A stretch of 64,000 bases of DNA, taken from contig CM097885.1 of assembly GCA_044892525.1 (NCBI GenBank), positions 267,592,001 through 267,656,000 on the forward strand. The letters are read 5' to 3'. This DNA is from Schmidtea polychroa (taxonomy: Eukaryota). Below, in pieces: positions 21,441 through 60,062 of the stretch. The notes below the pieces were generated by a model that was not told the origin of the DNA, did no database searches, and worked only from the letters and a program-made list of their open reading frames with translations. The position numbers and the translations under genes were made by a program. Position 1 is the first letter of the stretch; every line of letters starts with the position of its first letter.

Positions 21441-21465
21441 GTCTTCATTTGCTTCTTTCTACTGA

Positions 21466-40899: not shown

Positions 40900-41310
40900 G
40901 TATGGTATAGGATCGTTGTCCTGTTGAAATCTCCATTTATGAGGCATTCTTACCATGACATATGGCAATATTGCCTTTTCAAGGATGTAACGGTACACAA
41001 ATTTGTCCATGATGCCGGTGATATGTGTTAGTAGACCGGTTCCAGATCTTGAGAAAGCTCCCCAAACGACAACATTGCCATCTCCGTGCCTGACAGTTGA
41101 TTTTTGGTAGAGAGGATTGTACTTTTATCGATTTAAGCATAAAAATTTACATGGACCATCGGAACTAAAAAGGTTGAACTTTGATTCATCAGACCAAAGT
41201 ACAGTAGACCCTTGCTAATGTAGACCATTGACAAAGGCAATTCTTTCGCGACGATTTTTAACAGAAACATATGCCTTTTTAGCAGGGTTGTGTGCATGAA
41301 GTCCAACGCT
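40900..41310 (-). pseudogene. Tc1-like transposase, catalytic-domain part (downstream of the Polinton insertion; 3' end truncated)
   Basis: SVGLHAHNPAKK...VLWSDESKFNLF...TVRHGDGNVVVWGAFS...WRFQQDNDP, with in-frame stops. Confidence 0.9.
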
Positions 41311-42177
41311 AGTAGAGACAAGTGTGCTCCATGACTCATCGTTTTTTGTCATTTTTTTTGCACTACCCCCCCCCGATGACTCAGTGCAAAACAAAGACAT
41401 ATGACTCATCCATAGCAACAGTGGTAACTGGGTCAAGGTCATATGACTCATCCATAGCAGCGGCTACAACTAGGTCAAGGTCATTCTATTTTTAGTAACC
41501 AGGTCACATGACGTCATCGATGACTCATCAAGGTCATTCTATTTTTAGTAACTTGGTCAAGGTAATTCTATTTTTAGTAACACGGTCATGTGACGTCATC
41601 GATGACTCGTCAAGGTCATTCTATTTTTAGTAACAAGGTCATATGACTCATCATTTTTGGAACAAAGCCAACTGACTCATTATTAAAGTATGTATGACTC
41701 ATCATTTTTTAAACAAAGACATATTTAATATTTAAATAAATACATTTAAACAAATATTTAAACAAAGACATTTAATCAAATATTTAAACAATGACATGTA
41801 AACAAATATTTAAATAAATACATTTAAACAAATATTTAAACAAATACATTTAATCAAATATTTAAATAATGACATGTAAACAAATATTTAAATAAATACA
41901 TTTAAACAAAGACATATAGACAAAGACTCATCGATGACTCATAGTTTAAATAAGGAGTTATTATTTTTTTTGTGCACTAGCCCCCCCCCCTGTATGACTC
42001 ATCGATGACTTTTTTGAACAAAGACCAATCATTTATTTTTAAAACAAAGACTCATCACACGACTCTAATTTTTAGAACAGACTTCTTTTTTGGAAAACCA
42101 AAATTTATTGTATGTCACTACAGAATAATAATTATAATTATAAGTAATATTAATAATAATATATAATAATAGGTAAT

Positions 42178-42255
<78 letters not shown>
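41311..42255 (+). repeat. Left TIR of the Polinton (internally repetitive, ends in (AAT)n)
   Basis: Reverse complement of ~56745-57683 with a few substitutions and small repeat-unit indels. Confidence 0.93.
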
Positions 42256-42260
<5 letters not shown>

Positions 42261-42396
42261 GAAAAATAATATTCAACAAAATATATTTAAATTACAAATT
42301 TACAATTTTACATTGTCTTTTTTACAAATGTCGATTGCATTGATTGTTTCTTACAATCTTGGTTTCATTGACAACTAATAATAATAAAAAAAAAAA

Positions 42397-42429
<33 letters not shown>

Positions 42430-42446
42430 TATTATTACCGAAATGA

Positions 42447-45400
42447 TCAGTAATCTTCTCCGTCAAAATTGTCGTCATCATCATATATAAAAGTGTCCCT
42501 TATCCGATAATGCCCATATGCCAAACTCTTGTTTTTCGATTTCCAATACCGCTTGTCATCTCTATTTGTCAGCGCCTTCTTAATGTTTTTTATGCTGTAC
42601 AATTGATGATTTTTGGATGCAATGCGGAATTGTGGCACAGAGTAAACCTTATTGTTAAAATAACAATCACGATAGGAATTGTGATCTAAGCCAGTATCTT
42701 TCAACGTGACAGATTTTGCTTTAAGAGTTTCTTTATCACCTAATAAGCTGTAACGAAGAAACACCCACTCCTTATATCTCAATCCTTTATTCTCGTCTTT
42801 GAATTTTCCAATGACGGAATCTAGGGCTCTACTATATAAAGGATGTTGTGGGTTATAATTAGATGTGTCAAGCAAGGAGTCACGAATCATGGCAGGTAAG
42901 AGAATGTCAAGACTACAATGTTTAATTTCCAAAAAGAAAGAGTCTGTATCACTAGCTACTATATTAATTTGACAGTTAAACTCATCGCGATATTTTTGCA
43001 ATTCATTATACTGCAACTGATACATTCTCAGTTTAGAAAGATCAAGTACAGTTTGCCCGATGTAGCTGGGCCTATCTAAACATACAGACTCTTTCCTAAG
43101 CAAAACCGAAATCAAATCATCGTCTATCCTAGTAGATTTCTTAAATGCCGGTTTTGAGGCATATGTGATAAGTTTTTGTGCGGAATTGCATAGTCGTAAG
43201 TTAATACGTTTTTTCAAGTTCTCAACAGTTTTTCCATACAAACTGTTATTGAGCAACTTGTAATAGTCTTTATCGAGCGGTGTTATGGATGCGGCTCGTA
43301 GTTGTGTGTTGGTATCTATGTATTTCTTGAAGACAGTGCTTTGTGTATACCTAATAGCCCTATGTACCTTGGTAACAACAACACCTAACTGAAGAAAGAT
43401 TTGGAGAAGTCGCTAATGTAGAACATAGTGTGTTTTTGGATCGTGTGTAAGTAGCAACTTCTCCACTTTAGAAAAAGGTGGGCACATCTTACCAGGAGCT
43501 ACCGGAAAATCATCTAGTTTGTCATGGATAGATTTCGGTATTTTTAAATCTACTTCTATAGTATAGCCATAATCAAGTTGATTTAAATCTGCCGTTGTGC
43601 ACTCAATTAATAATCTCTCTAAAGCAATGTCATCAGTCACCCATTCAAAACCACCGTCGGGAAGCTTTTGTGATAAAGCCCATCCATACAGGTTGTTGAT
43701 GTCAATATACAACAACTCTGTATTTTCATCACTACTAACAAAATGTTTATTCACAAACGTTATCCCACCTCTAATCCCACCTTCAAAGAAATTATACATT
43801 TCCATGTCGGTGAGAAGCTCAATCGGTTTATCAAGACTTAACAAAGCAGAACTCCAAGAAAGACCGGGGATACCTAGGAAATTCAAAGGCTCAAGCCTAT
43901 TATGAGCAATACTCTTAGCTCGGAATTGCTGAAAAAAGTCAGCCAACAGAAATACGTCTAATTTCAAATAGACCATCATATAATCCAAAAGGGAATTACA
44001 TGATGTCTCTTGCCAGATTAGTTTTGCTTTATTGTATTCATCATCGGATACATCACTCCATTTAGGGGGCAATTCTAATGTAGAAATTAATACATCAAGG
44101 GAAGTTGCAACATCATAAGGGAAAATCCCTTTACTCTTAATAATAGACCCTCTAAACTCAGATTCTGTCAAAGGTAATGTGTTAAGGGTTGAGACAGCAT
44201 TTTTCAAAGACGAATTTACAAACTGACAAGAATCTATAAATTTCACAGTCAGGGAATCAATATGCACAAAAAGAGATAAAAATATTTCACTTGTCACCGG
44301 TATACAAGAAATACGCCAGGACTTATATTTAGCCAAGCCAAATTTGAGGATATGATGGAGATCATACCCTCTCAAATTATGAAAGACTACAGGTAGTGTG
44401 TGGTATATTTTCCTGGAAAGATTACAAGTGTTACAAGCAGCACCAAGGAATTGACCGGTAAAGTGATCATGATCCCTGACTGGTTTAACTAATAATTTTT
44501 TACACAAATGACAGTTTGTGCTGTTATTAAAATTAATTTGGTCATTTTCTGTGAATATCATTTTCTTATTTTTATTTTTATAATAATAGGGAGTTACAAT
44601 CTTTTTAGCGATATCATTAATTTATTTTAAAAATTCGTCTATACAAGAAAGGCCTATGAATGATTTATAAAATTTTGCGCCTGAATAATTATTTATACAT
44701 AAAAGTCCAGCCGAAATGGGTGAATGTTTCTGATAATATTTAGAATCTTTAGGAAGGATTGCCTCAAAATCGGCATAAATAACAAAAGGAGGAGTAATCA
44801 TTTTACTATAGTCTGTAAATTCTAATAATGGATCTTTGGGTAGTGTGTACATTGTGGTTCCTAATTGGTTTCGTTCGCAAAGACCTTGATGTTTAATAAA
44901 ACTATCTTCAAATCTGAATCCATTCAGACATCTAGGACACCACTTACAGTAAATACGAACAGAACTTATTGATGAATTTCGGCAATTAAGAAAGATGTTT
45001 AAATCAGATATAGCGACGTAATGGTAGGTTTTCCGATTCTGTAATAATAACAAATTTAGACAAGTACCTCCTACTATTTTACTGCGATAAATTATATCTA
45101 TAAAAGGATGTTTCATGATGGGGCCCGAAATTAACCCAGTTTCGTCGTAACTTAAAACATTAATTGAATAACCTGGGTTTTGTCGTTCAAATTTTGAGAT
45201 ATTTGATAATTTCATTGGCATATCTGTCGGGTTATATATCAGATCTGAAAGGTTATAAGAACTAGGCAGATGACGCAATTCATCAGGAGTACTATCATAT
45301 TTTATAAGAGCCAAAACCGAGTAAAGGAAACAAAATTCGTCATCATTATTTACATTTATTATACATTTTTTCCTGATTAATGTTTTCGGGGTTTCAATAT

Positions 45401-46286
45401 ATTTACGACCACTCAACCTACTAATCTTTGAATATTTTGTCACAATAAAACTAATGTATTCTATTTTGTTGATGGTCCAATTACTTCCCTTTTCATTTAT
45501 TTTACTAATTTTTTCATTTAAAAGAGAGATACCATCATCAATAAATGTGTCGCTCCATACACGAGCAGAGTTTGAGATTATGAAAGACTGAAATTCATCA
45601 TTTTTCTCAAACTCTACTTTAATACAAAATTGAATTTTTACTGATTTCATTTTATTTACAATTTCTAACAATTTTTCTATGAGAACGTCAGGAACAGAAA
45701 GAATTTTACAATTCAAGGAAGATATATCCAACTTAACTATTACATGTGAACTATTCAGGTCGGAAACTACGTCGACTATACCACTACCTACTTGGGGTAC
45801 AACATCACTATTTTCAAATTCACTATTTACAACTTCACTATTTACAACTTCACTATTTACAACATCATCGTCGTCATCACTAATGACTATTATTTCTTTC
45901 ATCTTTTTTGTGGGAATTTCTGTGGAAATTTCTAAATGTCTTTTATTACCTATTATTCCTATTAATCTATTGACTGTTTCCATTAATTGTCGATTTTGTA
46001 TCAACATGGCATTAATCATACTTTTGTTGGTGGTCCTATTATTGATTTTTGTTGATGTTTCCATTAATTGTCGATTCTGTAAGTTTTCGGTGTTCCTATT
46101 ATTAGTTGATGATATATATTTTTGATACGCAATTCTGAAAACTGATTTTTTAGAAGGCATATATTGGGTTAAATGGTTACGATGTATATCATAAAATTCG
46201 GTATATGTCGATGTTTCAAGAGTTTGGCATGTAGGACATAACAAGTATGTTACACTTTTATATTCATGACCATAATATTTTTCCAT
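42447..46286 (-). pseudogene. Protein-primed DNA polymerase B, one reading frame interrupted by two stop codons
   Basis: The three listed ORFs are in one frame, separated by TAA (44622-44624) and TAG (43413-43415). Motifs: YADFE, FHNLRGYD, YIDINNLYG, KLLNNSLYGKT, SDTDS, plus the endonuclease-VII-like CHLC..RDHDHFTG..GAACNTCN. Confidence 0.95.
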
Positions 46287-47369
46287 AATATCGTCACAGT
46301 CATGATGTGTAGCACTGTTACAAAAGGTTGGATATTTATAACCTATAAAATAGTATTATTATCAAAATTATTATTATTATTATTATTATTATCAAAATTA
46401 TTATTATTTATTATTACTATATAATCTGAGTTTATACGACAAAATATTCTGTCCCTCCCTTGCTCACAAGTGTATTATATTTAAAGTTATTTTAATTACA
46501 TAAAAACATATTCATTTTCTTTATAAAAATTAATTTCATTATTTGTTTCATAACAAAATTGACTTCATACATTTTCTTTATAACAAAATTGACTTCATAC
46601 ATTTTCTTTATAACAAAATTGACTTCATATTAATTTAAAAAATCATAATAATTTAAAGTAAATTAATTTAAAAATCATAATAATTTAAACCATATTAATT
46701 TTAAAATTTTAAAAAACCTACATTTAGGTTTCTTGCACGCGAGATTGTGTACAGCATTAATTACTAAAAAATCATAATAATAATAATAATTTAAAAATTA
46801 AATTAACCATAATTTCCGGAAACATTATTTTCAATTCCATTACTTGCTGAAAAATTATAAGTTCCCGAAACATTATTTTCATTAATGTTGACTAAAATAT
46901 AAATAAAAATAGAAACATATTAATAAAAAATTACCCATACGATTTCTTTGAATCATTTCCTTGATTTCATTTGAAATATTTTGCATTTTGAATAAATGAA
47001 AAAGAATTACAAAAACATAGATTATATATGTAACGTTTATCCAATCAAAATGCAGATAGGATAGAAAAAATTAACGCACACATATTCATGTCTTTGTTTA
47101 AAAAAGAATGAGTCATCGATGACTCACAAATAATGTCTTTGTTACTCACATAAAGACATGCAATACAAGTGCATGACATTNNNNNNNNNNNNNNNNNNNN
47201 NNNNNNNNNNNNNNNNNNNNNNNNNNNNNNNNNNNNNNNNNNNNNNNNNNNNNNNNNNNNNNNNNNNNNNNNNNNNNNNNNNNNNNNNNNNNNNNNNNNN
47301 NNNNNNNNNNNNNNNNNNNNNNNNNNNNNNNNNNNNNNNNNNNNNNNNNNNNNNNNNNTAATACATTTA

Positions 47370-47720
47370 TTAAACAAAATTATACATTGATAACAACCAT
47401 GCAAGGCAATGTTGGCCACAAGTAATTGAAAATGGATTTTGATACCGAGTTCGATTATATACAATAGGTTTACCAATAGTTTGCAATTTACTAATTAATA
47501 AATTTGGGTAATAATATCCAAAGGGATCGAATGCATATACTCGGTTTGGTTTCACATATACAGCAATCCAATGTTCACCTCCTAAACTAGATGTATGAGT
47601 ATTGACGATTATGGCTTGATTATTTCTCAAATATGGAATTTTATCCAGTGGATAAACTCCAAGAAATTGGTTTCCCAATAATTGAGTACCAATTCGAGAC
47701 ACCTGAATAGAACTAATCAA
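47370..47720 (-). CDS. Adenain-like cysteine maturation protease
   Basis: IIVNT..SSLGGEHWIA (His), FDPFG (Asp), YQ....ITCGQHC (Gln/Cys). Confidence 0.9.
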   Translation of the reverse strand: MISSIQVSRIGTQLLGNQFLGVYPLDKIPYLRNNQAIIVNTHTSSLGGEHWIAVYVKPNRVYAFDPFGYYYPNLLISKLQTIGKPIVYNRTRYQNPFSITCGQHCLAWLLSMYNFV

Positions 47721-47784
47721 TAAGTTAAATTATAAAATAAAAATCTTACTCCATAAAAAACTTTAATCTTTTAAATTTCTTCAT

Positions 47785-49011
47785 TTATACTAGTACAGTT
47801 CGATTTGCAGTAATTTGGATTTCATTTTCAAAAACCCCATAGATTATTACATGGACTGGTTCAGTAGTTGCTTTACCGAACTTAATATCCAATCTCAAAT
47901 TGCCACTTTGAGGTAATTGACTTTGATTTAAATCAAAATCTGGAGCCAGAACAAATGTGAAAAATGGATAGAATGTTTTGAATTCTTCCAGACTTATACC
48001 ACAATTAAGATTTTTATCCAAATATCCTAAATTTCTGACAAGACTTTGCATATATGAAGTACAATAATTATCATTATCAAAATCTTGAGTATAAGTTTCT
48101 CGATAATCAGTATTTTTCGATAATGAAAGAGAAGTTACACTAAAGTGTTTGAATTTTGATGAGGATGTATCATAAGATCCGTTATATTGAGTTTCACTTT
48201 GAAAAGTTACAAGGATAAAATTAGGCATTCTTCGATCTCCAAATATTTGCTCCTTGTAAAAAGATGATGCTCCTTTAGCAATTGCAAATGATACAATTTC
48301 TTTTGTTTTTATCGGATAAATTGCATGTTTGGTATTTAATCCAATTTGATGTCCCGCTAATACAGACGATTCACATCGAACTCTTCGAACCATTAATTTG
48401 GCATCGAGTAATATTAATTTAGGTGCTGCACCTGCAACTCCAGTTGATAATGACAATGCAGAATCAGATCTTTTCAATCTCATATGTACATTAACACCTG
48501 GTAGTAAATATTTGGGTTGATCCATAAAATCCAATTGTAGAGATGAACACATGTTGAAAGTTTTTGAGCCTTTAATCCATTTTTTTCGATCATCAGATAC
48601 ACCATATCCCATTGGTGTTAGACAAGTATCTTTAGTATCATTATTATAATTTAAAATAGTTTCGATAATTGCCTTGTGAGCATATGTATTGTTTCCACCC
48701 TCAATTTTAATGTTATTAAATCCAAGAATAACATCTTTAAAGAGAGTATGAAACAAGAAATTATTAGGTTCAGTTGTATCATCTGCAGTTAATGCTTTAT
48801 TGTCTTTATCTACAACTTTTATTTGAACATACAACAAAGTATCGTTCAAATCTAAATATTCTGTTTGAGAACCATTAATGTAAAATTCCACATCATTTCT
48901 ACTATCGGTAATAGAATTCATTGGAAATACATCTTCAAATGCTCCATATTCGATAACCGCCTGAGGCGATGGTCGATCAAATATACATAATTCAGATTTA
49001 CCGCAAATCAT
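47785..49011 (-). CDS. Major capsid protein (double jelly-roll, hexon-like)
   Basis: 408 aa; KSELCIFDRPSPQ..VEFYINGSQTEYLDLNDTLLYV and GNLRLDIKF C-terminus typical of animal Polinton MCPs; lies next to the protease gene. Confidence 0.85.
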   Translation of the reverse strand: MICGKSELCIFDRPSPQAVIEYGAFEDVFPMNSITDSRNDVEFYINGSQTEYLDLNDTLLYVQIKVVDKDNKALTADDTTEPNNFLFHTLFKDVILGFNNIKIEGGNNTYAHKAIIETILNYNNDTKDTCLTPMGYGVSDDRKKWIKGSKTFNMCSSLQLDFMDQPKYLLPGVNVHMRLKRSDSALSLSTGVAGAAPKLILLDAKLMVRRVRCESSVLAGHQIGLNTKHAIYPIKTKEIVSFAIAKGASSFYKEQIFGDRRMPNFILVTFQSETQYNGSYDTSSSKFKHFSVTSLSLSKNTDYRETYTQDFDNDNYCTSYMQSLVRNLGYLDKNLNCGISLEEFKTFYPFFTFVLAPDFDLNQSQLPQSGNLRLDIKFGKATTEPVHVIIYGVFENEIQITANRTVLV

Positions 49012-49397
49012 TCTTCAAATATGGTTCCGTGTCCTTTCATTCGTTTGTTTATATGCCTTCTCCCTCTCTTGCGTTTAGTTCCCATACTTGTTTTAATTTC
49101 ACTTTCAAATTTACGTTTTACTGGTACCGTTGCTGGTTCAGTTTTAAACATACCAGGTATTACTTTACTTATTTCAGCAATTGCATTTGATTTCAACGAT
49201 GGTAATATTTTCTTATCATTCATAATTACATCTTTTGCAGTTTTCATACCGAAATTACCAATACGTCTAAGAATTGGTAACGCAAATCTACCAATTGTTC
49301 TCAACCACCCACTTCCGTACTGTTTACCAACAAAATATGGTAATTCGCCACCACTTTGGCTACCACTATACATACTAATAATATCAGAATTAGCCAT
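49008..49397 (-). CDS. Small basic virion/core-like protein with Gly-rich putative cleavage sites and an amphipathic helix
   Basis: QSGGELPYFVGKQYGSGWLRTIGRFALPILRRIG; basic C-terminus (KRKRGRRH); lies between the two capsid genes. Confidence 0.65.
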   Translation of the reverse strand: MANSDIISMYSGSQSGGELPYFVGKQYGSGWLRTIGRFALPILRRIGNFGMKTAKDVIMNDKKILPSLKSNAIAEISKVIPGMFKTEPATVPVKRKFESEIKTSMGTKRKRGRRHINKRMKGHGTIFEE

Positions 49398-50409
49398 CTA
49401 CTTTACGAAAATGTAGTGTCAAATGAGTTTTTGAATCTTTTGCAAATTCGATTAATTGACCAGAATCATCTCTTATATTTATTTCGATATTGTTTATACA
49501 GGATGTTGAAACAGGCAAATACATGGGATTTTCTACATTGATTTGTACAACATCATCTTGTTCATGTTTCTCAACCCAAATAGATTTCAATAGAGGAACC
49601 AAAGAATCACCAACAATTATGGGTTCAATAATATTAGTATAGAGAAACATTTGATGATGAAGTTTAATTATTTTCGGTTTATTCATACCTACATTTAATT
49701 TTCCATCTTGAATATATGTTCCTTTTGATAATCCTAATGTTTTTATTAGATTTTTATCAAAAGTAATTTCAGTAATATCAGTATTCAAACTGAATTTGAA
49801 CAAAGTATTGTCTACTAATTCCAATGATTTAAATATTGATCCACAATTTTGAATTAAATATGATTGTAATTCCTCCAATTTAGAAATGTATAAATTCTCA
49901 TTAAACGTATATGTATTTTCAGTTTCACCCTCAAACTCAACTTTCATTGAAATTGTCTCATATCGCGCTGCTACTTTGGTAAATCTCGGCCGTAGTACTT
50001 GGAATATATTAGTATGATTTCTATTACTCTGACTTGTTAATTCCAATCGTTTTGCCATTGCTAAACTATCAAATTTTATAGTAAAGGGATGATATTTACA
50101 TTCATCTATTAAATATTGACGATCAATATACATTTTGACAATTGAATCGGAAGGACCAATATCAATTCGATCTTCTACATTATCAATGACAAAAGAGATA
50201 TTTCTTTGCGTCTCTTTCTTTTTATATTCAATTTTAGCTTTACTATAAATTGGAAAGAGATTGTACACAAATGTAAAGTCAAGGAGAGCAACTTCCCAAT
50301 TACCATTTAAATAAATCGGATTTTGGAGATTGACCATAAATTTACTGGCAGTGTTTTCTGGATGTATATTCGGACAACTATTACTTGGCAAAATAATGTA
50401 AAAATTCAT
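49390..50409 (-). CDS. Minor capsid protein (penton-like)
   Basis: MNFYIILPSNS..ENTASKFMVNL..IYLNGNWEVALLD N-terminus and EINIRDDSGQLI..HLTLHFR C-terminus typical of Polinton minor capsids. Start placed at ATG 50409 (the ORF track uses 50436). Confidence 0.85.
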   Translation of the reverse strand: MNFYIILPSNSCPNIHPENTASKFMVNLQNPIYLNGNWEVALLDFTFVYNLFPIYSKAKIEYKKKETQRNISFVIDNVEDRIDIGPSDSIVKMYIDRQYLIDECKYHPFTIKFDSLAMAKRLELTSQSNRNHTNIFQVLRPRFTKVAARYETISMKVEFEGETENTYTFNENLYISKLEELQSYLIQNCGSIFKSLELVDNTLFKFSLNTDITEITFDKNLIKTLGLSKGTYIQDGKLNVGMNKPKIIKLHHQMFLYTNIIEPIIVGDSLVPLLKSIWVEKHEQDDVVQINVENPMYLPVSTSCINNIEINIRDDSGQLIEFAKDSKTHLTLHFRKVDG

Positions 50410-51536
50410 TTTACGAGGTCTCGAGACGATATCCATGATGGGTTTTTATATCCATGCCATTTGACATAGTATTGTTTATCCTTACCCACCATTTTAGTTT
50501 TCAATATTTTTTGAATTCTAAATACTTTTGGGGGAGGAATTACTTGTAATTCTTGCTCATAAAATTTCCCTTGTACAATGTTATTTTCAGAATCTCTGAT
50601 GACATACATCACAGGGTTCTGGCTAGTATTTATTTTCGAAATTACAAAGACTTCATCACTCCAATTTGTATCGAAATTTTTAATAAATGGTGATGCACTA
50701 ATTTTACTAATTCTAACATGGTCACCAACTTTATATTTCGGTTTTGTAATTTTTTCAGATTTTTTAGAATAGAATGTTTTTGATGTGATATCAACCGGTC
50801 TCAATCCATTAAGTCCTCGATGTGATGAATTATTATAACTGGTTATAATTTTTGGTAAAACCAATACCCATTTTTTATTACCTTGATACACGAACAATTT
50901 CTTTAATCTATCTCTCAAGGTTCTGTTAAATCTTTCAACATGAGCAGCTTTGTATTGAGAATGTACCGAGTAGTGATTTATTTTCAGTTTATCGAGGATT
51001 TGCTAAACTTTACTGTTNNNNNNNNNNNNNNNNNNNNNNNNNNNNNNNNNNNNNNNNNNNNNNNNNNNNNNNNNNNNNNNNNNNNNNNNNNNNNNNNNNN
51101 NNNNNNNNNNNNNNNNNNNNNNNNNNNNNNNNNNNNNNNNNNNNNNNNNNNNNNNNNNNNNNNNNNTATTAGGATGTCCATTTTTAAATAAAATATTAAT
51201 AGCTTTGGACATTTCATCTGCAGATTTTGACTTGACTGGTATTGCTCGGGCAAACCGACTGAATACATCAATACATGTTAAAATATATTTATACCCCTTG
51301 TTAATTTTTGAATAGGGTATCATCTCCATCAAATCCATTTGCCACAAATCATTTATTCCATATGTTTTATACGCTCTTGTTGGAAATCTTTTCTGCATTG
51401 GTTTGTTCAAACTGTACGCGAGTTGATTTGATAACCACTTCTGGGTTTCTTTTTTCGAATTCGGAACTCTTTTCTTTAATTTTGCCACTCCACCGAAACC
51501 GGCTTCGTCTTCTGGGTTCGTCCAAATCTTCTCCAT
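50406..51536 (-). pseudogene. Retroviral-type integrase with C-terminal chromodomain; in-frame TAG and an assembly gap
   Basis: DLWQMDL, YILTCIDVFSRF, then (after gap 51018-51166) NSKV*QILDKLKINHYSVHSQYKAAHVERFNRTLRDRL, and chromodomain FRIQKILK..YYVKWHGY..PSWI. TAG at 51003-51005. Confidence 0.92.
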
Positions 51537-51591
51537 TACAACAGGAAGATTTAAAATTCAAATTAAGATTTGGTAATGATTGACCCATTGT

Positions 51592-52083
51592 TTATGATGA
51601 TGATTTTAATAAACCTGCCCCTCCCAATAAAGATAATGCTATTGGTATCAAGGCTGCAATGAAGCCTCCTTGTTGTTTATATATGATTTTACGCATACGT
51701 TTTTTATTTTTAGTATTTACTAATGATAATAATGGTTTCTTGTGTCTGTTCAAAATCTTTTTATTTGATGTACTTATACGGAATTTACCTTTAACAACTT
51801 TAATTAAAATAGCAAGTAAATCATCAATAACATAGTTTGGAAAAGACTGTAAAATATTCATTCTTCTCATACTGGGAGCCTTAAGTAATGCAATGAAAAA
51901 CGGAAAACTACGATGAGAATTACTCGGCGGAATATGATTACTCGGTGGAATACGATTACTCGGCGGAATATTATCAATAAGCAATTTTTTCGATGGTGTG
52001 AAACTAGTTTTTGGTGGAATCTTAACCACTTTTGCAGGTTTCCTTCTTGTAGGTTTTGTCTTTACACGAGTTTTTAGTAACAT
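51592..52083 (-). CDS. Basic core-like protein ending in QQGG + amphipathic helix
   Basis: Lys/Arg-rich; C-terminal KQQGGFIAALIPIALSLLGG; lies between ATPase and integrase. Confidence 0.65.
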   Translation of the reverse strand: MLLKTRVKTKPTRRKPAKVVKIPPKTSFTPSKKLLIDNIPPSNRIPPSNHIPPSNSHRSFPFFIALLKAPSMRRMNILQSFPNYVIDDLLAILIKVVKGKFRISTSNKKILNRHKKPLLSLVNTKNKKRMRKIIYKQQGGFIAALIPIALSLLGGAGLLKSSS

Positions 52084-52104
52084 GATTGATAATTTATTTT
52101 GGTT

Positions 52105-52728
52105 TTATCTTTGTTTATATACTATAGCTCCTTCCTTGTTAAATATATCTGTTCTTACTCGTAATTCATCAGGACACTGTTGTGTAAAATCTAGAAAAAT
52201 ATATCCATGTGGGGATTTTGTTGCATCGGCAAATGCATTCATTAAGAAATTTCGATTATTTGGATATGCTTGCCTTGCAAGAAAGTCAATCACTGTAGCA
52301 TCTCTCGGATTTTTGAAAACAACTAAATATTGAATATTCAAATTACGAGTTCGATGTGATCCACCTTGATGAAAAAGATTTTGAGTGATAAAAATTACAG
52401 TGACACCTTTATGTCTACTAATTTTTGTAAACAAATTATTAAAATCCTTTTCTTTATTTGCTTCTTGATATAAATCATCAATAATAATCACATCACCCTG
52501 TCGTAATCTAGATGACCAGTTTTTATCGAACCCTTTTATGATTGTCATTTTGATTTTACAAAACTGATCTTGTGTCATTCCGCTTTCATCATCAGCTCCC
52601 CTATGCCAATAAATTTTATTAAATTTTGACTTGAATAATTTTGATTGTAATAATTTACAAACAAACAATGTTTTCCCGCTACCACTCGGGCCAACGATTT
52701 GGTATACTGCATCATTTCTTAATTGCAT
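52105..52728 (-). CDS. A32/FtsK-like DNA-packaging ATPase
   Basis: Walker A GPSGSGKT, Walker B VIIIDD, SRH..VTVIFITQNLF and RTRNLN motifs. Confidence 0.93.
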   Translation of the reverse strand: MQLRNDAVYQIVGPSGSGKTLFVCKLLQSKLFKSKFNKIYWHRGADDESGMTQDQFCKIKMTIIKGFDKNWSSRLRQGDVIIIDDLYQEANKEKDFNNLFTKISRHKGVTVIFITQNLFHQGGSHRTRNLNIQYLVVFKNPRDATVIDFLARQAYPNNRNFLMNAFADATKSPHGYIFLDFTQQCPDELRVRTDIFNKEGAIVYKQR

Positions 52729-52836
52729 TTTTTATTTTTAATTTTAAAATATCTAGTTATTGTTTATATTAGATGATTTTAATGAACTCTTGCTAAAGTT
52801 GTATATAAAGAGTAAAATTTGATAAATGATTTAATT

Positions 52837-53274
52837 ATGCTTGCAAATATAAATTATCGAGGAAATTTTGATGTTTCAAAAATGAGGTTCCCACCAGGAA
52901 AACCACAGCAAATTGTCGATAGAAGCGGGAAATATCCGATAATATTTTTCAAGACTGGCAAATGCAAAATTATGGGATGTAAGGAACCATTGGATATTAA
53001 TAAATTACAATATCGAATCAATAATATTAAAATTCAATCAATTACCGTTACTATGGATATGGGAAATACTATCAATTTATACAAAATATCGAGAAAATGT
53101 GATTGTATGTTTGAACCGGAATTGTTTCCGGCACTAAGACTATTAAAATATAACCCTATATGTGTCAATGTGTTTTTAAGTGGAAAGGTTGTCATGCTTG
53201 GGTTGAGAAATTTAGACTATAGGGAATTTGTTAACAATGTTCGGAATGAGTTAAATTCATTGGTCGATTTCTAA
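52837..53274 (+). CDS. Miniature TATA-binding-protein (TBP)-like protein, 145 aa from ATG 52837
   Basis: Two TBP-like half-repeats: IIFFKTGKCKIMG (cf. LIFSSGKMVCTG) and KIQSITVTMD..INL..FEPELFPALRL..VNVFLSGKVVMLG (cf. KIQNMVGSCD..IRL..YEPELFPGLIY..LLIFVSGKVVLTG). TATATAAA at 52802-52809. Confidence 0.85.
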   Translation: MLANINYRGNFDVSKMRFPPGKPQQIVDRSGKYPIIFFKTGKCKIMGCKEPLDINKLQYRINNIKIQSITVTMDMGNTINLYKISRKCDCMFEPELFPALRLLKYNPICVNVFLSGKVVMLGLRNLDYREFVNNVRNELNSLVDF

Positions 53275-53723
53275 TTGGTTAATTTCTAATTGGTTAATAA
53301 TAATAATATTAACTGTTTAGATGTCATTAATACTAGCGCGGCAAAATCAATGTCTGAGATCGATAATTACGGTAAATTTTTAATTTATATATATTTTTTA
53401 TATATTTTATAGATGAATATTCCAAATGATTGCCTCAAGTATTTCTATCCTCAATTGAATGAAGGACAGAGATCCAGAGATTATACCAGATTTGGTATAC
53501 AAGAATCTGGATGTTCGATATATTGAATCAATTCCAATGAGTAGATCGACAGAATGCAGAAAGAAATGGAATATCCATGTATTATTGGATGCAGTTGGTC
53601 GTTATCAGCGATATGTAGAATGGAATTTAGTAAAAACACTTAGAAACTTATTCTAGGATTGTTGATTTAAATTAATAAATATTTTTTTATGTATTTTGTT
53701 TTTTTATATATTAATGACCAAAA

Positions 53724-53779
<56 letters not shown>

Positions 53780-53789
53780 TAATATTAAT

Positions 53790-53970
53790 AATAATCATAC
53801 ATGTGCAACATTAATGCAATTTAAACAAAGACACATTAATGCAAACCATGTGCAACATTGATGCAATTTAAACAAAGACATGTGCAATACAAATGCAAAG
53901 CATGTGCAACATTGATGCAATTTAAACTTTAATCTGATTGGTTGTTCCATTTATTTTGAAGGTATAAAAA
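53790..53970 (+). promoter_or_regulatory. Repeated motif array + CCAAT box + TATA box upstream of ORF 54004
   Basis: Three ~50-bp related units with (T)GATGCAAT/TAATGCAAT and AAACAAAGAC; CTGATTGG at 53934-53941; TATAAAAA at 53963-53970. Confidence 0.55.
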
Positions 53971-54003
53971 CCCTGTACCATTTCATTTTAATCATAATTC
54001 ACG

Positions 54004-54411
54004 ATGGTCAAGAAAAGCACTGAAAAACCGAAAGATGAACTTGTTCAGCCTGTTCGAATGTTCCACAACTACAAAATGTATTTTTTAAAAGAAGAAATCA
54101 ATATGAAATTGGTTGCACCGGTCAAGTTAATTCCAACTCAATTTCAATTCTTATCCGGCACGCTTTCAATGGTAGATGTTAAAACCATAGATGATGTTTT
54201 CAAACGGTTGAATTCAAATCTATCATGTAATCAAAATGCATGGTTCAACAACCGATTTGCACAATTTTATGATGCCTTTGATGAAATCAGTTTCAAAGAA
54301 AACGAAAATTGGTATATAACAATTGCAATCCAAGGATATAAAGTCGATAATAATGATGTGTATTCTCCAATTTGGAAAATTATGTCTGCTAGGCTTTCAC
54401 AACTATTTTAA
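54004..54411 (+). CDS. Hypothetical protein, possibly OB-fold ssDNA-binding
   Basis: 135-aa open frame with its own CCAAT/TATA promoter; aromatic beta-strand-like C-terminus WYITIAIQGYKV..VYSPIWKI. The fold call is inference only. Confidence 0.6.
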   Translation: MVKKSTEKPKDELVQPVRMFHNYKMYFLKEEINMKLVAPVKLIPTQFQFLSGTLSMVDVKTIDDVFKRLNSNLSCNQNAWFNNRFAQFYDAFDEISFKENENWYITIAIQGYKVDNNDVYSPIWKIMSARLSQLF

Positions 54412-54563
54412 TGTATTTAATAAATGTATATAATGTATTTTAATAAATGTATTTAATGTATTTAATCTTATTTATTTTATTAATATTAATGCAACAGTAA
54501 TGCAAATTTAACAAAGACATTCTATAAACAAACTTACATTATAGTTTAAAAGTGTTAATAAAA

Positions 54564-55022
54564 ATGACTACAGAAAAAGGTTAATTTTGATTAATAACTT
54601 ACCGAATTATTTATTATTTAGAAATTGTAATCAACTTTTTGTTGGAAAAATTGGCAGAAATAGCTGGTGTAAATGTTGAGGATATATTATCTGTTGTAAA
54701 TGCATTAAATATAGGCTGGATAGTTGAAAGTCAAGATTCAGGATTTGATGAAAGTGAAGTGAGTCAAGAAATTGATGTAGAAATTGATGGAGAAAAAACC
54801 CAAGAAATTAGTGAAAACACCCAAGAAATTAGTGAAAACACCCAAGAAATTAGTGAAAACACCCAAGAAATTAGTGAAAACACCCAAAAAATTGATGGAG
54901 AAAACATCCAAGAAATTGATGGAGAAAACAATCAAGAACAACCTAACGATTGTATAGATCATGTAGTTGATAATATTATGAAATGTGGAGATGACTATTG
55001 TGAATGTGTTAAAAAATGTTAA
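54564..55022 (+). CDS. Spliced acidic protein with 7-aa repeats; exons 54564-54579 and 54622-55022
   Basis: Removing a 42-nt GT-AG intron (54580-54621) joins ATG-ACT-ACA-GAA-AAA-G in frame to the TTG-started ORF (MTTEKEIVINFLLEKL...); TQEISEN repeats; Cys-rich C-terminus. Confidence 0.7.
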
Positions 55023-55083
55023 ATTTTAAAATTTGTTTTTTATACATAAGAAAAATAACAAAAATTAATATTTATTTAAATAT

Positions 55084-55245
55084 TTAAATAACATACAATA
55101 AAACAACTCCTGTTGTGAGTTTAATATAGTTTTTCATTTTTCTTTTGATTTCATCAGTTTCTTTAGCATTGCGGGCGAGTTGATTGAGTGTATCCCATCC
55201 GCCATTATCTTCTATCCATGGACTAAACTTGGATTTGATTATCTA

Positions 55246-55300
<55 letters not shown>

Positions 55301-55601
55301 TTACTTCTAAAGACCACTGATAATAATGTTCTGAGTCATGTTGGCTTTTCACAATGATTATCTTCATGTAGGTGAACCCTACAATAATTCTTGTCCATTG
55401 TATGTCTTCATCGCAGAGACATTGAAATATATTGTTAAAATAATTCTTCTTTGATTCAAGACAATCCATATCAAGCATGCTCTGGTAGTCGATATGGTTG
55501 CCTTCAATAATTTGTGTGGTCCGATTGACCAGGAAATTAAGGCTGTCGACTATATTCGCTGTGACTAGTCCATTTAGAACGTTTTCAATAAATTTAAACA
55601 T
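55084..55601 (-). CDS. Two-exon Bcl-2-family protein (151 aa); exons 55601-55305 and 55242-55084
   Basis: Exon 1 has BH1-like FNNIFQCLCDEDIQWTRIIVGF. A 62-nt GTAAAT...TTAG intron (55304-55243) leads in phase 0 to BH2 FSPWIEDNGGWDTL and a hydrophobic tail YIKLTTGVVLLYVI; TAA at 55086-55084. Confidence 0.85.
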
Positions 55602-55710
55602 TTTTTACAATAATTTTTAATATACTGTCTTATTTATACTACTGTGTGTGTAATATGATTCTGATTGGTTGATAGACTATAAATGTAAAACATAATAGAT
55701 TTGATACAAC
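55602..55710. promoter_or_regulatory. Compact bidirectional promoter (TATA - CCAAT - TATA)
   Basis: Minus-strand TATAAATA (55638-55631), central CTGATTGG (55661-55668), plus-strand TATAAAT (55678-55684) between two divergent ATGs. Confidence 0.6.
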
Positions 55711-56211
55711 ATGAAAACTATATTTCTATTGCTAATTATTATAAGGAATGTGTGCTCGCACAATACAACAATAACGGTGGAGTCTTTTAATAAATCAATA
55801 TGTATTTGTCCAAATACCGCCAAGTTGATGGATATTTTATATATTCTTGACAAACCAAAATGGGCAAAGCATCCAGGAAAAAAAATATCCCAAAGATTGG
55901 AGAATTTAGAAAACAGCTATGACCTATCTTTTGAATATATACAAAATATAAAATTTAAATTGATTGATCATATTGAGGTTTTCAATAACTCAATTGTTGA
56001 AAATAAAAAGAATATGAAAATTATTGATAAGAAACATGATCATTTGTTAAGAAAGATTGATTTAATAATATTCGAAATTCGAACAATAAAAGAATCGATA
56101 GAAAATTTGAAAGCCAATTCAACTTTACCAATTTCAAACAAGATGGCAGCAAATATGAGTACATCAATATTTAAATGGCCATTGTTAATTTTAAATTATT
56201 TCATTGTTTAA
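55711..56211 (+). CDS. Predicted secreted or membrane-anchored coiled-coil glycoprotein
   Basis: Signal-peptide-like MKTIFLLLIIIRNVCS; NxS/T sequons (NTT, NKS, NNS, NST, NMS); heptad-like region; hydrophobic C-terminus WPLLILNYFIV. Confidence 0.65.
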   Translation: MKTIFLLLIIIRNVCSHNTTITVESFNKSICICPNTAKLMDILYILDKPKWAKHPGKKISQRLENLENSYDLSFEYIQNIKFKLIDHIEVFNNSIVENKKNMKIIDKKHDHLLRKIDLIIFEIRTIKESIENLKANSTLPISNKMAANMSTSIFKWPLLILNYFIV

Positions 56212-56312
56212 TAAATGTATTAATTTAAATTATCTTTTGTCTGATATATTATTATTATTATTGGCATAAATATTATTAATTTAATTATTATTATTACTAG
56301 TATTGTCATAAA

Positions 56313-56381
<69 letters not shown>

Positions 56382-56742
56382 TTACATAAAGACATTTCAT
56401 GCACTTGTATTGCACTTGTATTGCATGTCTTTATGTGAGTAGAAATTACTGAGTTAGTAACAATGACTCATCGATGAGTCATATTCAGAGAACAAAGCAT
56501 CGATAATATCCAATTCTGATTGGTTAGATGTTATCGATACTTTGTATATATTTTTCAAATGAGGTAATTATTATTTTTATGATTTAATTTTTTTATAATT
56601 AAATTTCTTATGATTAATTTTAATTTTTATTTCTTTATGAAACCAGTTTTTATGAAAACAAATTATATGATTTATGAAATCAATTTTATGAAAACAAACT
56701 TTTTTATGAAGAAATGGGTATGTTTTTATAATTATAATTATA

Positions 56743-56744
<2 letters not shown>

Positions 56745-56808
<64 letters not shown>

Positions 56809-57683
56809 ATTACCTATTATTATATATTATTATTAATATTACTTATTATTATAATTATTATTCTGTAGTGACATACAATAAATTTTGGTTTACCAAAAAA
56901 GAAGTCTGTTCTAAAAATTAGAGTCGTGTGATGAGTCTTTGTTTTAAAAATAAATGATTGGTCTTTGTTCAAAAAAGTCATCGATGAGTCATACAGGGGG
57001 GGGGGCTAGTGCACAAAAAATAATAACTCCTTATTTAAACTATGAGTCATCGATGAGTCTTTGTCTATATGTCTTTGTTTAAATGTATTTATTTAAATAT
57101 TTGTTTACATGTCATTATTTAAATATTTGATTAAATGTCTTTGTTTAAATATTTGTTTAAATGTATTTATTTAAATATTTGTTTACATGTCATTGTTTAA
57201 ATATTTGAGTTAATGTCTTTGTTTAAATATTTGTTTAAATGTATTTATTTAAATATTAAATATGTCTTTGTTTAAAAAATGATGAGTCATACATACTTTA
57301 ATAATGAGTCAGTTGGCTTTGTTCCAAAAATGATGAGTCATATGACCTTGTTACTAAAAATAGAATGACCTTGACGAGTCATCGATGACGTCACATGACC
57401 GTGTTACTAAAAATAGAATTACCTTGACCAAGTTACTAAAAATAGAATGACCTTGATGAGTCATCGATGACGTCATGTGACCTTGTTACTAAAAATAGAA
57501 TGACCTTGACCTAGTTGCAGCCGTTGCTATGGATGAGTCATGTGACCTTGACCCAGTTACCACTGTTGCTATGGATGAGTCATCGATGAGTCATATGTCT
57601 TTGTTTTGCGCTGAGTCATTGGGGGGGGGTAGTGCAAAAAAATGACAAAAAACGATGAGTCACGGAGCACACTTGTCTCTACT
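56745..57683 (-). repeat. Right TIR of the Polinton
   Basis: Reverse complement of 41311-42255. Confidence 0.93.
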
Positions 57684-58075
57684 AACGCTCATCAGTGTGC
57701 TTGCCCAACTGATGGAGGTTCAAGTTGTCTTGAGTGACTAGCAGTTATGAATGGGTTTTTCTTGGACTCTTTCACGATAGTTCGATCCATGCGTTCGTTT
57801 GTTTTGCGAGGTCTCCCACATTTTTTGCATCTTGAACACATCCACAGTTTTGGTATTTTTTGATAACTTTAGTCACAGTACTGCGCTGGATTACAAAAGC
57901 CTTCGCAATGTCAATTTTCTTTCTTCCAACATTAATTCACAAATAGTACCATTTGAAAGCCCACATAAAACAGTGTTGATATATAAAAGGAGAGGATCCT
58001 AGGCATTAGTAGAACAAAATGGTTCAAAAAGAAACAAATTTCTATCACATGTTTTCATACTTTTTTTCCTCACTG
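57684..58075 (-). pseudogene. Tc1-like element 5' part: TIR and N-terminal HTH region of the transposase
   Basis: TA-CAGTGAGGAAAAAAAGTATG terminus (58075 downward); KKIDIAKAFVIQRSTVTKVIKKY and GRPRKTNERMDRTIVKESKKNPFITA; joins across the TSD to TLMSVGLHAH at 41310. Confidence 0.85.
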
Positions 58076-58328
58076 TAGCTATGAAGTCTCAACTATGGGG
58101 CATATTGTAAGTAAAGTCTGAAATTAAAAGCAATTTTCACATATTCTAAGAATCGACTTGATCTTTAAGGATTCCTAAAAATGTAACAGCTACTTCCAAA
58201 AATAAAAAAGTGCCTTGCGAGTAAAAACACAACCATAAAGGCTCTTAGCTACAGTGGGAGAATATTTATAAAAAATTAATTGTTGAATGCCTTTTATTTT
58301 AAGGAAAATGATTACGTAAAAATCTTAC

Positions 58329-59180
58329 TAAATTCGTGTCAATAATTTCAACACAAGCTAATAAACCGCGATGACAAAAGTGATTTGGAATAGGAACATT
58401 GACAAAGAAGTTCAATTTTTCCAGCATTATCCTTTCCATTTGCACCACATGTCCAGGTTTATAGCAGTCTTCAGTAAGATAACAAAACTCCTTGATTCTT
58501 GGATGAAACCTTTGCACAATTTTACAGGCAATTAACATTCCCGCAATACCAACGAGCTGATAGAAGGACTTTTTAATAAGCGCAATGGACGTGAACATGT
58601 CAATAAGCACCACTCCAACCTGTAGAGTTTCAGTGGTCATTTTCGAATATAATTGAACCTACAAATAGCTATGTCAATTATTAATCAGAAAATTATTTCA
58701 AAAGATTTTGCTCACATGAGCATGTTGGGATAACATTTAGAATCAAACAAACCCATTTTGACAACCTTTATCAGCCAATCCATTAAAGTAGATCGGAAGT
58801 TTTCTTCAAATCCATTCAGAGCTAAGTAATTTTTGTTGAACTTTATTGCTTCCTCTCTCTCATAGAGATATTTGAACATGTAAGGATAATATTCAAAAAA
58901 GTTTTCATCTATTTTCATATCAAATTGCTCCGATAAATCCGAAATTTCTTTTCTTTTTGGTGTTATAGTTCGTATAAGTAACAGCTGGCAAATCATTACT
59001 AAATTATCCTCATTTGAAAGGTTGGTGATATTTGAACCGTGTTTAAAACCTGAATATTATTAATAGTAATTATTAAGCTGATAACAAAATTTATTCCATT
59101 GCAAAATTTATTTTATTTAAATGCAAACTAAATTCTCAGATCTTACCGATCGAGAACGCCATTGGTGTGCCACCAATCAT
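58329..59180 (-). CDS. 5' exons (59180/59162-59147, 59049-58766, 58658-58329) of a mitotic A/B-type, probably B-type, cyclin
   Basis: Cyclin box FRSTLMDWLIK|VQLYSKMTTETLQVGVVLIDMF..YQLVGIAGMLIACK..MERIMLEKLNF after removing 97- and 107-nt GT-AG introns; GTAAGA donor at 58328. Confidence 0.85.
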
Positions 59181-59612
59181 ACTTAAACAAGTATCCAATG
59201 AAATTCAAGTATGCATTATAATACCATTCAGATATTATTTATTCACCAATTATCTCTCAGACAAGACTTTTATTATCACATTATTTATAATTATGATTTA
59301 TACGTTAATGACAGTGAATTTAATGTTTTCAAAAACAGTAGTCCATGAAAATAATTGACAATGAACAAGCAAAAAAACTATATGGCATTTGTTATGTCAA
59401 ATTTGCACTATTTAAATAAATGTTGTACTTTATAATCTCTTTGTAGTTTGCAGCTTTGGCATCAAAGGTACGTCGGTGTACATTTTCAACTATCTTGCTG
59501 CGGCGGTTTGGGCTATGAGAATAGCGAAAGGTGGCAAACAAACATATTTAGAGTTTTATATATAAGATGTAATTATATTAATTAAATTAAATTAATTTGG
59601 TAATAAGTAATG

Positions 59613-59657
<45 letters not shown>

Positions 59658-59753
59658 TATTAATTAGTAAAAACATACTCGTGTGTCTATGTGAAAAGGT
59701 AAAACGAGTAGGTTTTGAGGTTGGTGTATTTGAGACATGTTTTCGTTCACTTT

Positions 59754-60062
59754 CTATTCGAGGTTTTCAATAAATGTATGACAAATAATTTTACGTCTTC
59801 TTGGAATTGTTAGCTCCGGTTTTGGTTTGGATCTTTCTTTACTCCAAAAGTGTCGTAGTTGTGAAAATCGGTCTGATAGCTGTTTTGGTTTCTCCAATTC
59901 ATTGTTTGACTTACTTGACGAGAGTCTTGTTGATTTTGAATATCGTCGAATAAAGCATTTCATTCTTTTCACTTTTGACAATGAGATCTTAGATTTCCTT
60001 TTCTGCAAGAGAGAGTCGCTGGCAAATTCTAACTTGTTTTCGTTGACATTCTGAAGCATCAT
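59754..60062 (-). CDS. Hypothetical basic protein or exon (possibly an upstream exon of a host gene)
   Basis: 102-codon ORF with higher GC than its surroundings; no recognisable motif. Confidence 0.3.
   Translation of the reverse strand: MMLQNVNENKLEFASDSLLQKRKSKISLSKVKRMKCFIRRYSKSTRLSSSKSNNELEKPKQLSDRFSQLRHFWSKERSKPKPELTIPRRRKIICHTFIENLE

Follow-up and report, generated by a model that had tools for sequence, protein, structure and literature searches.

A miniature TATA-binding protein encoded by a planarian Polinton and a private, oriented box upstream of most packaging and putative capsid genes

A TATA-binding protein (TBP) relative of only 145 amino acids is encoded by a Polinton/Maverick element of Schmidtea polychroa, and in this and related elements an oriented TATA-like box, YATAAACR, mostly precedes the genes for packaging, integrase and putative capsid proteins. 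It appears probable, though well short of certain, that the protein acts on these boxes as a one-protein switch from early to late gene expression. The features of the element, which lies in a window of 64,000 nucleotides (the whole stretch of DNA that was analysed), are collected in Table 1.

The initial annotation had assigned the TBP-like gene to a Polinton, and this proved to be correct. The gene lies inside a whole element with long terminal inverted repeats (TIRs) and a 6-bp target site duplication (TSD), and the protein-primed DNA polymerase B (pPolB), RVE integrase, packaging ATPase and protease of the Polinton/Maverick gene set were all found by Pfam. Jelly-roll capsid proteins gave no Pfam match among the open reading frames of the element, and the two capsid genes are putatively assigned by position, size and homology. 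The 163 amino acid protein is a putative virion core or membrane-active protein. The TBP-like gene and the packaging ATPase are arranged head-to-head, and the gene for a 135 amino acid protein predicted to resemble single-stranded-DNA-binding (SSB) proteins is conserved beside the TBP-like gene in the short clade described below; its model has a pLDDT of 91 and the SSB of phage Enc34 as its best, weak match. Run X1 contains three joints with CT..AC ends whose places agree with introns of the protease and the polymerase on the minus strand, suggesting spliced 5' exons of pPolB (46340-46935) and a protease intron (47712-47750).

Table 1. Features of the Polinton element (positions in the window)
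Feature	Position	Strand	Remarks
Whole Polinton/Maverick, 16,373 bp	41311..57683		TIRs and TSD
TIRs, about 850 bp	about 41311-42255 and 56731-57683		repeat ends
6-bp TSD	41305-41310 and 57684-57689		target-site duplication
pPolB, three separate frames in this copy	42447..46286	-	Pfam DNA_pol_B_2 3.6e-18
Adenain-type protease, short intron	47391..47784	-	Pfam Peptidase_C5 9.9e-07; no box before it
Putative major capsid protein, 408 aa	47785..49011	-	position, size, homology only
ATAAACA box before putative major capsid gene	49046..49052	-	inside 129-aa gene
129-aa gene, between those for penton and major capsid	49008..49397	-	conserved across elements
ATAAACA box before 129-aa gene	49491..49497	-	inside penton 3' end
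Putative minor capsid (penton) protein, 348 aa	49390..50436	-	position and homology only
ATAAACA box before putative penton	50473..50479	-	word search
Integrase of retroviral type, 5' part, some of it read as N	51003..51536	-	Pfam rve 1.6e-07
ATAAACA box before integrase	51589..51595	-	word search
ATAAACA box before 73-aa Met-Gly ORF (51367-51588)	51674..51680	-	word search
163-aa basic protein, C-terminal hydrophobic peptide	51592..52083	-	conserved across elements
ATAAACA box before 163-aa gene	52112..52118	-	inside ATPase 3' end
A32-like packaging ATPase	52105..52728	-	Pfam Pox_A32 6.3e-07
ATAAACA box before packaging ATPase	52761..52767	-	non-coding head-to-head spacer
Canonical TATA box TATATAAAG	52802..52810	+	35 nt before TBP-like ATG; in 30/30 nearest copies
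TBP-like gene, 145 aa	52837..53274	+	saddle complete, repeat-1 helices lost, F99 to P, polar DNA face, TFIIB stirrup kept
Canonical TATAAAA before 135-aa gene	53963..53969	+	sequence
135-aa gene, predicted Enc34-like SSB fold	54004..54411	+	weak match, E 0.04, prob 0.96

The relationship of the open reading frame to TBP, claimed by the initial annotation from the letters alone, was borne out by sequence and structure searches. Pfam TBP (PF00352) matched residues 63-125 only, with an E value of 9.8e-15, and all 35 PDB sequences returned by phmmer were TBPs or TBP fusions. An AlphaFold2 model built from a 27-row alignment reached a pLDDT of 94.2 and a pTM of 0.83 and showed the saddle of the PF00352 fold family, two repeats with a ten-stranded sheet. 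All 44 PDB matches listed by Foldseek at E<=0.001 were TBP chains. VIA-align placed 144-145 of the 145 model residues on residues 66-240 of yeast TBP (Z 12.4-12.5, rmsd 2.7-2.8), the first unrelated fold following at Z 6.5. As practically all residues superpose on yeast TBP, the likeness extends well beyond the short PELFP motif, and in the model alignment the TBP core covers the protein fully. The ESM Atlas yielded TBP-named clusters only, with taxa based on few members. Both half-repeats had been recognised, the second more strongly; repeat 2 is indeed the one detected by sequence, and repeat 1 is recovered by structure only.

The first repeat is short, as had been noted, because both of its helices are missing. 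Canonical TBP carries two convex-face helices per repeat; in the model the strands of repeat 1 are kept and no helix of four or more residues occurs before residue 81, the repeat-1 segments measuring 24 and 21 residues versus 34 and 34 in cellular TBPs. Since the frame is only 152 amino acids long from stop to stop, an N-terminal extension is likewise absent unless splicing provides one. Yeast residue numbers were transferred via cellular TBP aligned to PDB chains, and three of the four intercalating phenylalanines of canonical TBP were retained, F38, F97 and F113 corresponding to F116, F190 and F207. The fourth, F99, is replaced by P23 if the long members of the family define the register, or by I26, likewise not a phenylalanine, in the alternative register of MAFFT. 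Both the three retentions and the replacement had been read correctly by eye.

In a metagenome scan 132 relatives were found and 80 kept, of which 38 have at least one Polinton core gene on the same contig, the remainder being mostly short contigs; one of the 80, L135, is a cellular TBP. Protein searches added hundreds of further relatives. After clustering of 392 sequences at 62%, 204 were kept and 202 entered the tree, where 188 representatives formed one clade apart from the TBP paralogues of the host. In a maximum likelihood tree of 55 rows this clade had a support of 84.9/96, rising to 99.2/100 with one outside protein added, and one NCLDV-type TBP fell outside it. A single group of three copies from this genome with four host paralogues was rejected with a p-AU of 4e-29, a value which long branches may affect; on this value a recent capture from the host is ruled out. 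The identity to the host paralogues in the alignment is 18-23%. The phylogeny thus separates the Polinton proteins from host paralogues and points to no particular donor. The clade comprises 62 long forms, which keep the repeat-1 helices in partly shortened form, and 126 short forms without them, including the gene described here. As the short clade is nested among the long forms, miniaturisation is derived. In four long-form elements (L112, L114, L115, L125) two short related genes follow the TBP-like gene; they have a WYIDFEGY-type start and no Pfam match, and most are preceded by the box. Polinton contigs also occur inside bacterial GTDB MAGs (L156, L157-L160), one of them with a TBP-like gene. 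This is probably contamination, which may explain prokaryotic labels on TBP-like proteins.

With cellular TBPs and TRFs (PF00352; yeast, human, archaeal) the element protein shares the saddle, F116, F190, F207, N69, P191 and the E186/E188 stirrup. It differs from them by the exchange of F99 to proline, by V71N, V122R, T124M, N159S, V161T, I194R, V203C and L205N, and by the loss of the repeat-1 helices, which is confined to the short clade. Across the 188 representatives F116 is kept in 184, F190 in 187 and F207 in all 188, and the F99 register holds proline in 174 and phenylalanine in one. Arginine 122 (179), methionine 124 (186), serine or threonine 159 (183) and asparagine 205 (184) are fixed changes of the whole family, and N71 (118), R194 (122) and C203 (125) are found in the 126 short forms, of which 121 have arginine where this copy has K44. 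A DNA-facing surface which is conserved but rebuilt suggests a different target sequence rather than lost binding. Positions 194, 203 and 205 are the three changed in the yeast altered-specificity mutant TBPm3, and in canonical TBP the 5' half of the box is covered by the C-terminal repeat and its 3' half by the N-terminal one, as described in the available part of PMC1636458. In this geometry the changes at 194, 203 and 205 face box position 2, where the box has the canonical A, and they therefore leave the C at position 7 unexplained unless the protein binds reversed. The acidic C-terminal stirrup is retained at the level of sequence, with E188 in 186 and E186 in 173 of the 188 representatives, and a role of an acidic stirrup residue in TFIIB interaction is described in the part of PMC10005294 available.

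A candidate target emerged from non-redundant segments of 120 nt upstream of the element genes. The top 7-mer of an unbiased count was ATAAACA, present in 78 of 106 segments where about 4.8 were expected by shuffling. By gene it preceded the ATPase in 26/34, the 163-aa gene in 11/14, the integrase in 10/22, the penton gene in 9/12, the 129-aa gene in 7/7 and the major capsid gene in 15/17. Among the 97 segments from TBP-bearing elements 78 contained ATAAACA and none contained it in antisense orientation. With ATAAACR counted, 85 of the 97 have a private TATA-like box before virion genes of the kind that marks the late systems of herpesvirus-type viral TBPs. Without the host-genome loci ATAAACA still occurred in 53 of 70 segments from 31 loci. 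In the element itself seven of nine ATAAACA sites are on the sense strand upstream of the ATPase, 163-aa, 73-aa, integrase, penton, 129-aa and major capsid genes, and the word is not enriched across the whole window (32 seen versus 34.5 expected).

The box appears to go with the TBP-like gene. In four contigs in which this gene was not detected, all incomplete so that its absence is unproven, the box was found in none of nine segments. Eight of these nine control segments have a GC content of 0.49 or more; in TBP-bearing segments at a GC of 0.38 or above the box was present in 17 of 24. In all nine longer TBP-bearing elements the box was enriched upstream of open reading frames (P 2e-4 to 2e-8); two controls showed no such enrichment, and queries of viral contigs with ATPase and capsid sequences found no further control Polintons. 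The association has exceptions. ATAAACR is missing from 12 of the 97 segments of TBP-bearing elements, and in two of these elements it is absent upstream of the genes examined, the major capsid gene of L134 and the integrase gene of L129. The protein of L134 has a near-canonical repeat-2 face and is basal in the tree; the face of L129 is not near-canonical. A second type of box paired with another protein face was not found among the loci compared.

Many boxes lie inside the 3' end of the preceding gene, and the distances from box to ATG range from 24 to 112 nt overall. It might hence be argued that, instead of being a -30 element, the box serves as a signal for start-site choice, termination or RNA processing and is read by another factor. 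We regard this as quite unlikely, as the box also precedes the ATPase, where no gene lies upstream on that strand, and A precedes it in only 4 of 78 sites, so that it is not part of AATAAA. A reading as poly(A) signal is rejected on the same count. The distance to the ATG of the ATPase is 31-40 nt in 20 of 26 cases, and no initiator peak was seen downstream of YATAAACR in the analysis of upstream segments. Where boxes overlap genes, the use of box codons was compared with the codon background; comparison with the rest of the reading frame was discarded because of contamination by upstream sequence. Box codons were found at 15 of 15 sites in the 129-aa gene (background 0.08), at 23 of 24 in the ATPase (background 0.51) and at 14 of 28 in the penton gene, where every miss is an Ile-Asn-Ile site. 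Protein-coding constraint alone as the cause of these in-gene boxes is rejected by this codon use. ATAAACA also fits the Forkhead consensus, RYAAAYA, and could be the site of a host Fox factor. This seems very improbable, given that only one of 97 segments contains GTAAACA, the second frequent Fox word, that ATAAACA occurs in a single direction (78 sense, 0 antisense) and that ATAAACG is a tolerated variant.

The promoter of the TBP-like gene itself is of another type. Only 2-3 of its 64 upstream segments contain the box, 29 contain a canonical TATA (10.4 expected), and an initiator-like TCAYW follows this TATA at 30-32 nt in 16 of 25 hits. The SSB-like gene, which is expected to be early, has the box in three of eight segments; the protease gene has no box.

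Another possibility is that host TBP or one of its paralogues reads the box as a weak TATA variant, the element protein doing something else or merely helping. Host TBP may tolerate the box, since wild-type TBP has been crystallised with a C(-25) TATA variant, according to the title of PDB 1qn3, and a TATA-like distance together with the several TBP paralogue loci of the host would suit such a reading. It is nevertheless unlikely. The C does not vary among elements with ATPases only about 38% identical, while canonical boxes are retained at early-type genes, position 1 is other than T in 25 of 78 sites, and the four contigs without a detected TBP-like gene also lack the box. C in the 3' half is moreover called 'generally disfavored' in the available part of PMC1636458, there said of TBPm3 selections. 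No literature on Hoogsteen pairing and TATAAAC was found.

In the early-to-late switch which is favoured here, host TBP would read the canonical promoters of the TBP-like and SSB-like genes, and the TBP-like protein would be made early. The protein would then bind YATAAACR, bending it with its three phenylalanines; binding to the box is likely, judged from the sequences of protein and box. The C at position 7 might be read by the rebuilt N-terminal repeat with its changes V71N, F99P, V122R and T124M. The intact stirrup could dock host TFIIB and so bring in RNA polymerase II, with TFIIB as the inferred bridge. Transcription of the genes for packaging, integrase and putative capsid proteins would follow, and the boxed genes would be the late ones. 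In cellular TBP the repeat-1 helix surfaces are used by TAF1/TFIID, TFIIA, Brf1 and Mot1, and loss of these helices would free the element protein from all of them. The suggestion in the initial annotation that the element supplies its own TATA-recognition factor for late promoters is partly upheld and the better supported of its two readings: a private oriented box, an altered yet conserved DNA face and the stirrup speak for it, but the target is probably YATAAACR and not an ordinary TATA box.

The alternative suggested at the same time, a dominant-negative decoy, has become less likely. Such a protein would tie up host TFIIB or occupy host TATA boxes and dampen host transcription, the box being unrelated. 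The TFIIB stirrup is the best-conserved part of the protein, one intercalating phenylalanine and both repeat-1 helices are gone, and other host-directed cargo may be present in the form of a weak match to the Bcl-2 family (55239-55601, minus strand, E 0.002, below the cut-off). A decoy, however, would have no need of novel residues fixed over the entire DNA face and would not account for the oriented box that accompanies it, and there is little probability that it is the function of the gene.

The early-to-late switch has a counterpart in beta- and gamma-herpesviruses, where a TBP mimic is combined with a TATT(WAA) late box (PMC6541308, as far as available). The mimics KSHV ORF24, EBV BcRF1 and HCMV UL87 likewise have a TBP fold, a polar DNA face, a private TATA-like box and host RNA polymerase II. 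ORF24 needs its four phenylalanines, has a polar face without the acidic TFIIB residues and binds RNA polymerase II itself, according to the part of PMC12529657 at hand. It belongs to a complex of six proteins and is itself large, with several domains, whereas the element protein has 145 amino acids, keeps the stirrup and lacks F99. Homology to ORF24, BcRF1 or UL87 beyond the TBP fold, that is to their RNA polymerase II-binding and C-terminal domains, is absent from the 145 amino acid protein, and none of the five partner proteins of the herpesvirus vPIC gave a Pfam match among the open reading frames of the element. The structural match to herpesvirus proteins in BFVD is weak (E 0.014-0.018), which fits separate origins, and the Polinton protein with its box is probably analogous to the herpesvirus mimics and of separate origin. 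NCLDVs generally encode their own RNA polymerase; the Polinton element encodes none. In BFVD the element protein matches giant-virus TBPs best (E 1e-7); viral TBP folds are also found in NCLDV TBPs and in poxvirus VITF-3, a TBP/TFIIB-like factor (PMC12917281, in the part available).

The printed record of a Polinton-type TBP appears, in the parts of the sources available, to consist of one label, 'TBP', on MELD viruses with an adintovirus-like PolB in the legend of Fig. 5 of Starrett et al. 2021 (PMC8502044). In the available text it stands as a legend abbreviation with no family, structure, promoter or mechanism, and it may refer to a member of the same clade. The part of the PMC8502044 supplement at hand gave no TBP match, and other supplements may bear on novelty; the main text of PMC11071308 leaves TBP unmentioned. 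Within a search that left subscription journals and Repbase aside, no literature on a Polinton TBP family or a YATAAACR box was found.

A promoter factor that has a box of its own before packaging and capsid genes suggests that Polintons run an early-to-late cascade and, if this is true, that the herpesvirus strategy was invented separately in much smaller form. The protein is also a natural experiment on TBP, being a saddle without repeat-1 helices, with one phenylalanine fewer and with the TBPm3 specificity residues altered. Whether a broad lineage of animal Polintons carries the smallest known viral promoter switch, one TBP derivative of 145-180 amino acids redirecting host RNA polymerase II to YATAAACR with TFIIB alone and without TFIID, viral polymerase or partners, and whether face and box may co-vary in pairs from lineage to lineage, is in our view an evenly balanced question. 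If so, co-variation of face and box would provide pairs of TBP and promoter that are orthogonal by nature, together with staged expression of a virus-like kind.

The AT-rich host genome (781 Mb, four chromosome-scale contigs) contains at least 150 close copies of the TBP-like gene with 90-100% identity, and the factor could accordingly also touch host promoters with the same word. An internal stop is absent from 143 of the 150 matches listed. Subfamilies at 50-60% identity have the same arrangement in 14 of 14 loci chosen by a TBP profile. When host loci were picked by the ATPase alone, 20 of 20 carried the TBP-like gene. The initial statement that TBP is not a core Polinton gene thus holds across Polintons overall, one near-complete element being without it, but not for this lineage, in which it is fixed. 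A TBP-free Polinton family was not seen in the host genome with a distant ATPase query, all 20 fetched loci carrying the gene, and a distant protease query, its matches taken collectively and not singly, gave no sign of one.

For 13 pairs the ratio dN/dS lay at 0.11-0.44, and a 14th pair was unchanged in amino acid sequence; by this measure of sequence the gene is under purifying selection. Between the element and L047 and L141, dS was 0.25-0.43 for the TBP-like and SSB-like genes (52837-54411 of the window) and 1.06-1.16 for the ATPase and capsid genes. The lower values of the first pair of genes indicate module exchange between subfamilies.

An RNA origin is on record for none of the listed holders of the TBP-like gene, all runs being contigs. 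Contigs of runs X1, X2 and X7 cover the open reading frame, mostly from the sister subfamily at 90%, and X2 has poly-A/T loose ends. As some contigs span the promoter spacer too, and the contrast in depth between gene and spacer occurs in X4 as well, this coverage is a weak hint of expression only. Planarian Polintons are described as piRNA targets which are de-silenced during differentiation (PMC8532177, in the part available). Besides its TBP paralogues the host has an intronless, full-length and divergent TFIIB paralogue, with 13 matches in two clusters (G000:C1:23.85-24.19 Mb and G000:C3:38.2-39.1 Mb), of which the two fetched (L173, L174) are near-identical.

The TIRs contain 21 of the 27 TGASTCA sites of the element, compared with 9 in the 45.6 kb outside, as well as all four CRE sites and all eight TCAAGGTCA sites of the element. 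These are AP-1-type sites, CREs and nuclear-receptor half-sites, respectively, and on the strength of such words the TIRs could possibly act as a stress- or wound-responsive enhancer. Elsewhere in the window fragments of pPolB lying in both orientations, a Gypsy-type retroelement and a cadherin exon were found, and a cyclin gene lies directly to the right of the element (jointly at 13255-15640, 18436-22713, 490-3117 and 58299-60062).
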